From an uncultured Gemmatimonadales bacterium (GTDB taxonomy: Bacteria > Gemmatimonadota > Gemmatimonadetes > Gemmatimonadales > GWC2-71-9): a DNA stretch of 64,000 nucleotides. The notes beneath the pieces are model-generated. The model did not search any database. It saw only the letters and a program-made list of their open reading frames with translations, and was not told where the DNA came from. Below are positions 12,534-15,058 of this stretch, piece by piece (within the stretch, counting starts at the first letter, position 1; each line of letters begins with the position of its first letter). Location: contig CAWGED010000010.1 in NCBI GenBank assembly GCA_963821525.1, positions 64,001 through 128,000 on the forward strand, written 5' to 3'. The position numbers and the translations under genes were made by a program.

Positions 12534-12611
12534 GACAGAGGGGGCGGTGGCGTGAAGACCTCTTCACGCCCGCATCATTCCCTTCCTTGTCAGGTGGCGT
12601 ATTCTCAGTTG

Positions 12612-14141
12612 ATGCTCCCCCACCCCCCGTTTGCGAGCCAGCTCTCCCTGGAGGAGGAGCTGGCAGAGTTCGAGCGCCTCAAGCCCCGGCTGGCTCGGGT
12701 CTGGCCGATCATTGCCTGGGAGCGGGACGACCCCTGTACCACGGTGGTCGTCCCTTCCCTCACACTACCTCAGGGGGAGCTGGCCAAGCTCAGCGGGGCA
12801 AGCTACTACGAAGAGCGATTGTTGTTCCTTCTGATCCGTCTCCGCAACCCGCGCGCGCGGGTTGTGTACGTGACCTCGCAGCCGGTCCATCCCCAGATCC
12901 TCGACTACCTCCTGCAACATCTGCTCGGCATCCCGGCCAGTCATGCTCGCCAACGACTCACCATGCTCTCGGCGGCGGACGGCTCACCGAGGCCGCTCAC
13001 CCTGAAGATCCTCGAACGTCCCCGCCTTATTGAGCGGATCCGCCAGGCGATTCCCGACCGCGATTCCGCCTACCTCAGCGCGTTCAACGTGACACCCCTG
13101 GAACGGCGCCTCTCGGTCCTGCTCGGCATCCCGATCAACGGTGTGGACCCCGCGCTCGCGCACCTGGGGACCAAGTCGGGGAGTCGGAAGCTTTTTCGAG
13201 AGAGCGGTGTATCGCACCCTGCCGGGTTCGAGGATCTGAAGAGTGAGAAGGACGTTGTCGGGGCACTCTCCACCCTCCGAGACGAGCGGCCTGGAATCCG
13301 GCGGGCGGTGATCAAGCTCGACGACAGCTTCTCAGGGGCAGGAAATGCGCTCTACGACTACCCCGAGGAGAGTACCTCGCAGGCGCTGGCGCGCGCCCTC
13401 GACGGCCTCAAGTTCACTGACGCCTCGGAGACCCGCGAATCATACTTCGCAGAATTCGCTGTCGGCGGCGGGATTGTCGAGGAGTACGTCGATGGAGTCG
13501 AAACCCGCTCGCCCAGCGTGCAGCTCCGCACGGCGCCCTCCGGACAGGTCCTGCTGCTCTCGACCCATGAACAGATACTCGGGGGGCCCACCGGCCAGGT
13601 GTATGAAGGCTGCCGCTTTCCGGCAGACTCGGCGTACCGCCTCGCGATTCAGGAGGCGGGGCAGCGGGTCGGAGGCGCGCTGGCCGACCACGGAGTCGTG
13701 AGCCGCTTCGGGGTGGACTTCATGGTGACCCGCCCAAGACCCGACGCAGCCTGGGAATATCGGGCAATTGAAATAAACCTGCGCCTGGGCGGTACCACTC
13801 ATCCCTTCCTGGCGCTCCGATTCTTATGCGGAGGCGGCCTCGACCCTGTGAGCGGTCTTTTCCATTCCGCCTCCGGACATGGTAAGTACTACCGCGCCAC
13901 CGATAATCTTTGGAGTCCCCGCTACCGGGGGCTCCTCCCCGAAGACGTGATCGAGATCTTCACAATAAACCGGCTGACATTCGACTACCGGACGGAAACC
14001 GGTGTCCTGTTTCATATGATCGGCGCGGTATCCGAATTCGGGAAGCTTGGCCTCACCGCGATCGGTAACAGCCCTGAAGAGGCCGACATGCTTTTTGAGG
14101 ACACTCTGGATGCGCTGGAGGAGGAAACAGCCTACGGCTGA
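12612..14141 (+). CDS. PGM1-related ATP-grasp peptide ligase
   Basis: VVVPSL, YEERLLFLL, GTKSGSR, KLDDSFSGAGNA, SPSVQ, EINLRLGGTTHPF. Confidence 0.8.
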   Translation: MLPHPPFASQLSLEEELAEFERLKPRLARVWPIIAWERDDPCTTVVVPSLTLPQGELAKLSGASYYEERLLFLLIRLRNPRARVVYVTSQPVHPQILDYLLQHLLGIPASHARQRLTMLSAADGSPRPLTLKILERPRLIERIRQAIPDRDSAYLSAFNVTPLERRLSVLLGIPINGVDPALAHLGTKSGSRKLFRESGVSHPAGFEDLKSEKDVVGALSTLRDERPGIRRAVIKLDDSFSGAGNALYDYPEESTSQALARALDGLKFTDASETRESYFAEFAVGGGIVEEYVDGVETRSPSVQLRTAPSGQVLLLSTHEQILGGPTGQVYEGCRFPADSAYRLAIQEAGQRVGGALADHGVVSRFGVDFMVTRPRPDAAWEYRAIEINLRLGGTTHPFLALRFLCGGGLDPVSGLFHSASGHGKYYRATDNLWSPRYRGLLPEDVIEIFTINRLTFDYRTETGVLFHMIGAVSEFGKLGLTAIGNSPEEADMLFEDTLDALEEETAYG

Positions 14142-14236: not shown

Positions 14237-14404
14237 ATGATCGCGATTGACGAAGACCGATCGGCCTTGCGCTTTCGGCAGGCCGAGTTCATCAAGCAAT
14301 TGAGCCGGGGCGCGGAACACGCGATTTCGAAGGCGGGAAAGCCAAGGCGGGCAAGAAGCGGCGTTGACGTCAGACTCGATTCAGCCGCCGATGAACGCAG
14401 ATAA
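14237..14404 (+). pseudogene. Probable C-terminal gene remnant running into a palindromic element
   Basis: MIAIDEDRSALRFRQAEFIK resembles, from recall, the C-terminus of a conserved hypothetical family (VAIDEDWSALRFR); no N-terminal part present. Confidence 0.35.
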
Positions 14405-14519
14405 TCGCAGAAATCTCCTTCTAAACAGGGATGCTCGATATCCAAGACTGGGAGTGAGCTTCCAGTACACCCGAAATAACCAGGGTAGGTTTCTGCGTTC
14501 ATCGCGTTCATCCGCGGCT
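14378..14519 (+). repeat. Dispersed copy of the 9-bp-periodic palindromic element
   Basis: GATTCAGCCGCCGATGAACGCAGATAATCGCAGAA...TTCTGCGTTCATCGCGTTCATCCGCGGC. Confidence 0.85.
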
Positions 14520-14698
14520 TTTCCGGATGGGGCAACCAAGCTGGGAGGGGTGTTGTGGCTGGCCGTCGCCTTTGCACTCTACCTGACGGCTCAGATATCG
14601 ACGATGGCGTACTTCGTCTTGAAGGCGCGCGCAACACGATGGATCCGGGGTGTGCCGTCCTGGTACCGCGCATTCCATAACAGGCACTTCGGAGCACC

Positions 14699-15058
14699 CT
14701 GGCTATCACCCAGATCCCCAACATCGGCCCCCAAGGCCAACGGCGTCGGATGACCTCCGGGGCAGTCGCCCTCGGGATTGTCGTTGCGGCAGCCGTCGTC
14801 CTATTCGTGGTGGGAGCGCCGAAGGCCTGGCGCCTCGGCCTGTTCCTGCCGATCTGGCTCGGTATGCTGGGGGTGTTCCAGGCGCGCGAGAAGACCTGAG
14901 TGAACCTGGCGGCGCGCGGTCTGCGCGACCTGGATAGTGGATCAGAACCGATCGCCGATCCAGCCGAGCTGGCTCAGGTGCGACGCCAAGCCAGAGTGGT
15001 TCACATGAAGTCTTTCGTTGCGGCGGCGTTGCTGACGGCGCTTCTGTTCCTGGTGTAG
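14699..15058 (+). CDS. Putative selenoprotein, small membrane protein (in-frame UGA at 14897-14899)
   Basis: One frame: LAITQIPNIGPQGQRRR-TM-TM-FQAREKT(UGA)VNLAARGLRDLD...RRQARVVH-TM*; GGAG then CTG; SECIS-like hairpin after the UGA. Confidence 0.7.
14911..14930 (+). promoter_or_regulatory. Putative bacterial SECIS element
   Basis: GGCGCGC-GGTCT-GCGCGACC hairpin starting 11 nt after the UGA; compare E. coli fdhF GGTTGCA-GGTC-TGCACC. Confidence 0.65.

Follow-up and report, generated by a model that had tools for sequence, protein, structure and literature searches.

We find that positions 14699–15058 of the window, by which we mean the whole 64,000-nucleotide stretch of DNA analysed, very likely hold a single gene whose in-frame UGA is decoded as selenocysteine (Sec) through SelB and a downstream hairpin, and that its product is a predicted three-helix membrane protein in which the selenol likely acts as a redox centre. 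We put the probability that this is a real selenoprotein gene at roughly 0.88. The region forms one frame of 119 codons on the forward strand followed by a TAG stop, with a sole in-frame TGA at codon 67, as an earlier sequence-only reading had described, and structure prediction gave the product three long helices. The table-11 list of open reading frames contains only the last 52 codons of this frame, beginning at the GTG (14900) that follows the TGA. The features of the locus are as follows.

14691–14694 (+): GGAG, a possible ribosome-binding site (putative function), 4 nt before the CTG
14699–15058 (+): gene for the predicted three-helix membrane selenoprotein, 119 residues, with a likely CTG start and a TAG stop
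14720–14731 (+): NIGP motif, residues 8–11; a Cys stands 1–4 residues ahead of it in most Cys-form relatives and is absent here
14729–14812 (+): helix 1, residues 11–38, a basic RRR segment and then the first predicted membrane span
14822–14890 (+): helix 2, residues 42–64, the second predicted membrane span, with a conserved G-x-x-Q at its end
14897–14899 (+): the in-frame TGA (codon 67), a likely Sec codon where relatives have Cys
14911–14930 (+): bacterial SECIS-type hairpin, with its loop GGTCT at 14918–14922, 18 nt after the TGA
14921–14950 (+): beta hairpin, residues 75–84, the predicted packing surface for the N-terminal segment
14960–15052 (+): helix 3, residues 88–118, containing the third predicted membrane span

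No ATG, GTG or TTG opens the 119-codon frame, whose first codon is CTG. Because genome G003 has an ATG at this very place, after the same GGAG at the same spacing, and a metagenome contig that is 97% alike (L212) also has CTG there, the CTG is likely the start codon, with a spacing to the GGAG that is short. A search of genome contigs with one Cys-form protein as query gave one locus. A close database relative of the protein is labelled Gemmatimonadales, and the choice of phylum for the comparisons below rests on this label. Just upstream, at 14544–14681, lies a short membrane-like frame in which the contigs of three runs have an extra G after 14646, and several contigs diverge into other sequence before 14548, suggesting a gene remnant together with an assembly indel. 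Further upstream is an inverted repeat (14383–14519) with 16-nt arms 105 nt apart; pieces of it of 30–40 nt are found again at nine further sites of the genome and in G003, and it has the look of a small dispersed repeat.

The Sec assignment draws first on the alternation of TGA and Cys at codon 67, which was found with conservation on both sides of the codon (T66, C67, L70 and G74 are invariant in alignment A4). The gene was matched in 12 of 41 related genomes, each time with one TGA, and in 26 of 301 genomes of the phylum, 21 of them with TGA. Merged, and in counts that ignore kinship among genomes that are not independent, the two samples comprise 32 genomes: 27 with TGA, four with Cys (G191, G255, G257 and G281) and one partial (G199). 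Since the TGA is kept in 27 of these 32 genomes exactly where other relatives have Cys, it is very likely a Sec codon, as had been proposed. The partial match (L231, G199:C17:39687-39800) covers only the first ~39 residues, the remainder being missing or out of frame, and G255 holds a distant subfamily member (L040) with a Cys before NIG, Phe-Cys at the site, a TGT codon and no hairpin. For another phylum, that of a Vicinamibacterales genome, 301 genomes yielded six matches, four at full length (two with TGA, two without a stop) and two marginally; both TGA genomes of this second phylum carry selA. A pattern scan of metagenomes, covering 120 of about 430 loci, gave 105 TGA and 15 TGC or TGT, or 89 and 12 among the 101 distinct loci, a ratio that is no census because the pattern admitted only TGA, TGC and TGT and was derived from the gene's own subfamily. 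The G+C content of the TGA-bearing loci ranged from 49 to 79%.

Database proteins tell of the same site. Among the 19 hits of a first protein search, 11 end right before codon 67, and the others have Cys (five), Trp (two) or Gly (one) there. A profile search returned 2280 representatives at E ≤0.001, and the best 150 of these have 146 Cys, 2 Gly, 1 Trp and 1 Asp at residue 67, in line with the statement of the sequence-only reading that NIGP-motif homologues have Cys near this position. Another set of 134 sequences has 3 Trp and 1 Gly at the site. That reading had also named Trp or another residue at codon 67 as an argument against Sec, and such residues do occur, in eight database relatives over these two sets, which may overlap. 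In a quick tree each of the four Trp or Gly proteins of the 134-sequence set pairs with a TGA gene, and these four are probably TGA genes translated under another code. The Trp and Gly residues are also what would favour a reassignment of UGA to one of these amino acids in the organisms themselves. Such a reassignment, to which we give next to no credence, is refuted for this genome because TGA ends 699 of its 1129 long frames and is its main stop; moreover TGG-encoded Trp stands at 1.3%, the selA matches of 30 genomes have no internal stop, and the residue aligned with the TGA is Cys.

We weighed two further readings of the TGA. It could stem from faulty sequencing or from a nonsense mutation that arose recently in this assembly, which does carry many single-base indels, among other places in selB and its surroundings. 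However, 26 further genomes and 105 loci from metagenomes have the identical TGA, and the contigs (not raw reads) that span codon 67, from four DNA and two RNA runs, agree there among the rows listed; the RNA-run contigs cover the gene in relatives and do not in themselves demonstrate transcription. An error or recent mutation is thus refuted by the conservation of the TGA and has only a vanishing probability. Alternatively, the TGA could be a true stop, separating two small genes of 66 and 52 residues, the second starting from the GTG at 14900, or leaving a truncated protein. This is how gene callers record it, as the 11 hits ending at the codon illustrate; a GTG does stand directly after the TGA here, and TGA is the stop that this genome uses most. 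However, the following codon differs among relatives (GTG, GTC, GTA, GTT, ATT or ATC), so no second start is conserved, and inside the matches of the 41-genome, phylum and Vicinamibacterales-phylum samples only TGA was reported, never TAA or TAG. The break also coincides with the invariant Cys of full-length relatives, and the synonymous sites downstream are constrained as a hairpin. We therefore consider a true stop very improbable.

The hairpin, GGCGCGC-GGTCT-GCGCGACC, begins exactly 11 nt past the TGA, as the sequence-only reading had measured, and folds into a stem of 5+2 bp capped by a loop of 5 nt at −10.3 kcal/mol (−10.3 to −11.7). Its folding energy is ordinary (z −1.55 over 20 nt, −0.23 over 31 nt and −0.27 over 64 nt), and its geometry is rare: of the genome's 114,159 TGA triplets, only 81 are followed at an equal distance by a GGT loop that at least five base pairs close. 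Five of those 81 also fall within coding-like open frames, and two of the five are the selenoprotein candidate gene and fdh. The consensus for bacterial SECIS elements (bSECIS; PMC13188914, section 5) specifies a loop of 3–9 nt, a stem of 4–16 bp, a G in the first two loop positions, a spacing of 16–37 nt and an energy of at most −7.5 kcal/mol, and the hairpin lies within every one of these bounds with its 5-nt GGUCU loop, 5+2 bp, 18-nt spacing and energy. When the U of UGA is counted as position 1, the first stem base is at 15 and the loop includes G23 and U24; G23 is invariant across 94 rows, and position 17 is an invariant paired C. The formate dehydrogenase gene of the same genome has a TGA at its Sec motif, followed after 11 nt by a 7-bp stem with a GGTCT loop, an 18-nt loop spacing and no bulge, and the energy of this element is likewise ordinary (z −0.06).

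Codon usage over the hairpin shows synonymous constraint. Of 89 TGA genes, 73 have a stem of at least 5 bp closing the loop, where synonymous recoding would give 13.0; among the Cys genes 4 of 12 have one, where 1.3 would be expected. The Ala72 codon is GCG in all 89 TGA genes and in 8 of the 12 Cys genes, while GCG makes up 40% of the genome's Ala codons. On the other side, weighing against the hairpin along with its ordinary energy, the hairpin codons also specify conserved Arg and Gly residues, and the same CGC Arg codons are found in 11 of the 12 Cys genes. Two-sided compensatory change in the main register was seen at none of five pairs across 93 distinct rows, in which the pairs hardly vary; a register slid by −2 gave 7 cells in the covariation check, and an Rfam scan returned a chance match only. 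In the mechanism that we propose, SelB bound to the downstream hairpin would cause the in-frame UGA to be decoded as Sec, and we infer with high confidence that Sec is inserted at codon 67.

The machinery for Sec insertion, which the sequence-only reading had named as a check, was partly recovered from the genome itself and fully from its close relatives. The assembly, 81% complete, contains selA and a tRNA-Sec (UCA), whereas its selB lies in three pieces and frames (G000:C5:974880-976691) and selD has no match. Single-base indels relative to G001 and G003 occur in selB and its flanking genes alike, and because the flanks have them too we suspect an assembly error in selB; judged from these comparisons the assembly likely carries many indel errors. 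The surroundings of selD in three same-genus genomes (8.5–9.5 kb) gave no match in the assembly at E 1e-20, and the missing selD fits an assembly gap without proving one. The set of selA, selB and selD is complete in each of the four same-genus genomes. Among the 31 other gene-bearing genomes selA was found in 30, selB in 29 and selD in 30, and all 26 of the other TGA genomes have matches to the three genes, although the selB of G040 is a fragment at a contig end that scores below the cut-off. In G191, a genome 98% complete, selA, selB, selD and tRNA-Sec are all missing, and codon 67 is TGC. The remaining three Cys genomes retain selA, so the Cys form does not imply loss of the Sec trait. Since 240 of the 301 genomes from the phylum have a selA match that exceeds the cut-off (a tally that takes in G175 and G081, two genomes that no other result depends on) and kin are not independent, we regard the co-occurrence of gene and machinery as supportive, not decisive. 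SelD has an in-frame TGA of its own in 19 of the 30 genomes tested; going by a listing of the papers that name both selenoproteins and Gemmatimonad-, neither this nor the frequency of selA in the phylum appears to have been treated.

The structure of the protein was predicted with high confidence. The AlphaFold2 model (118 sequences; pLDDT 96) has helices at residues 11–38, 42–64, 68–72 and 88–118, a beta hairpin at 75–84 and, at residue 9, a bridge. Hydropathy rises clearly above 1.6 in helices 1 and 3 and less so in helix 2. Couplings computed from 397 sequences (effective number 269) ranked G13–D77 first and G10–D79 tenth and included pairs between helices 1 and 2 and between helices 2 and 3, so that both the model, by its bridge, and the couplings place the N-terminus against the strand at 75–79. 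Basic residues cluster at 1–18 and 61–104, which suggests that these segments are cytoplasmic and hence that residue 67 lies at the inner membrane face.

A second Cys accompanies residue 67 in most of the Cys forms. In a set of 138 Cys representatives whose N-terminus is intact, it stands at the N-terminus only (just before N8) in 92, at position 76 only in 17, at both in none and at neither in 29; the 17 Cys76 forms are scattered over a weak, poorly resolved tree (14 changes). The 86 TGA genes comprise 20 with an N-terminal Cys, two with a Cys within 22 residues after the Sec and 64 with neither, and the window's protein has no Cys at all. No CxxC-type motif was found. In the predicted structure the N-terminal Cys site and position 76 are neighbours, both adjoining residue 67 where the N-terminus meets the beta hairpin. 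L030 and P0005 show a TGA gene that lacks the N-terminal Cys and has one in an enlarged hairpin loop, which adds a third place to those where a second Cys occurs.

We read this pattern as an attacking Sec or Cys with an optional resolving Cys, and judge a redox role to be about an even bet. Residue 67 would then be the attacking residue of a thiol-redox reaction, with peroxide, disulfide or persulfide chemistry each conceivable, at similarly balanced odds. The Cys forms would mostly be recycled via the second Cys, before NIGP or at position 76, whereas most Sec forms, the window's protein included, have no second Cys and would depend on an outside reductant, with the selenol acting as redox centre on the predicted cytoplasmic face. 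Counting against the redox role are the 29 of 138 Cys forms with no second Cys at either site and the failure to find a CxxC-type motif, a conserved neighbour gene or a fold match. The site might instead bind a soft metal or metalloid (Cu, Hg or As) or carry sulfur or selenium as a persulfide, which we think rather unlikely. Two close Cys positions would suit metal binding equally well, and YgaP-like_TM, the membrane part of a sulfurtransferase, recurs as a weak Pfam match. However, no metal-resistance, rhodanese or sulfur genes recur beside the gene, where the largest cluster of neighbours holds 4 of 95 proteins; the second Cys that would complete a metal site is absent from 64 of the 86 Sec genes; and no longer fused form was found, which is weak evidence. 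Metal or persulfide binding suits the Sec/Cys pattern less well than the redox role does. No neighbour gene was conserved across 22 loci, nor among the 95 adjacent proteins of metagenome loci, and no phage or plasmid copies were found. The 529-residue ATP-grasp protein encoded at 12552–14141, with IQCH-like and PGM1 C-terminal domains, is not a conserved neighbour.

The family is widespread and has no name in the libraries that we searched. Pfam gave no match above its cut-off for the window's protein, NCBIfam (June 2026) none in sets of 20 and 144 proteins, and the PDB no sequence relative. Foldseek gave no match at E ≤0.001, the best by VIA (Z 7.2) being generic helical bundles, and ESM Atlas, queried with a natural Cys relative, returned unnamed clusters only. 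The most recurrent weak Pfam match was YgaP-like_TM, the transmembrane domain PF11127 (formerly DUF2892), in 4 of 20 and 5 of 40 proteins, all under the cut-off (best E 0.036 in the 20-protein set and 5.8e-4 overall; best score among the 40 proteins 20.4 bits against a gathering cut-off of 25.3). Both have an N-x-G..R..R..G start, two membrane helices and then a conserved Cys with a Gly seven residues on; the new family differs in that its Cys is preceded by about 7 more residues and not followed by a Pro, and in having a beta hairpin and a third helix besides. Profile alignment by hhalign gave a probability of 4–8% over 23–24 N-terminal columns only, with a score of 19.0 against a shuffled maximum of 18.2, and YgaP was not listed in the fold searches. 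With scores under threshold and a profile signal barely above shuffles, homology to YgaP-TM is not established. Two ordinary YgaP-like_TM genes without internal stops (L050 and L051) are present elsewhere in the genome. PMC4730233 describes the YgaP-like_TM domain as the membrane portion of a sulfurtransferase from E. coli.

In agreement with the sequence-only reading, which did not recognise a standard selenoprotein family here, the family is absent by models and names from the 119 families of the 2026 catalogue (PMC13188914, the whole of Table 1), where families with CDD or PANTHER identifiers were set apart by name alone as thioredoxin-fold, Fe-S or binding proteins. No prior description was found in the literature searched, which leaves subscription journals mostly outside and includes the accessible parts of PMC12013277, PMC13745706, PMC10778597, PMC13326102, 10.64898/2026.04.03.716425 and 10.64898/2026.03.03.709296. 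It is thus very likely a selenoprotein family not listed in the sources searched, new with respect to the PMC13188914 catalogue, Pfam and NCBIfam; BSepDB (111 families) and the Actinomarina preprint (69 deep-Sep families) lie outside this comparison and may bear on its novelty. The decoding mechanism is a known one, and the new element is a protein family missing from the catalogue and libraries, with 813 clusters at 50% identity (E ≤1e-10) and TGA forms in at least two phyla that are recorded as truncated hypothetical proteins. Small integral-membrane proteins are, judged by name, rare among the 119 prokaryotic families catalogued. More tentatively, and with slightly less than even odds, this could be a broadly distributed, as yet unnamed family of redox enzymes integral to the membrane, whose active site of three helices and a beta hairpin is of an unclassified type and in which the resolving Cys shifted repeatedly between two neighbouring positions and was dispensed with where Sec is catalytic, making up a class of soil-bacterial selenoenzymes hidden by gene callers that halve it. 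Because natural Sec, two-Cys and one-Cys versions exist of this confidently modelled 119-residue system, the effect of selenium at a membrane redox site is directly testable.

Compared with known systems, the gene resembles those that use SelB and bSECIS elements (prototype E. coli fdhF; PMC13188914, section 5) in the alignment of its UGA with Cys, the hairpin within the coding region, the loop 18 nt after the UGA, the energy below −7.5 kcal/mol and the co-occurrence with selA, selB, selC and selD; unlike them, it encodes a protein unrelated by sequence to any Table 1 family that has a Pfam or NCBIfam model. The E. coli fdhF SECIS, as the accessible part of PMC8659212 describes it, has a stem 11 nt after the UGA, G23 and U24 in the loop and a bulged U17. 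The likeness to fdhF claimed by the sequence-only reading therefore stands for the 11-nt distance and the loop and fails for the bulged U17, which is absent both from the gene's hairpin and from the genome's own fdh element. For a Sec without a resolving Cys we look to the 1-Cys/Sec-type methionine sulfoxide reductase A of Clostridium oremlandii, according to the accessible part of PMC4479559 a natural selenoenzyme that lacks the resolving Cys and is recycled by an outside reductant. That enzyme differs in being soluble, with another fold and a known substrate, and it is by analogy rather than by homology that it sets a precedent for the lone-Sec form.
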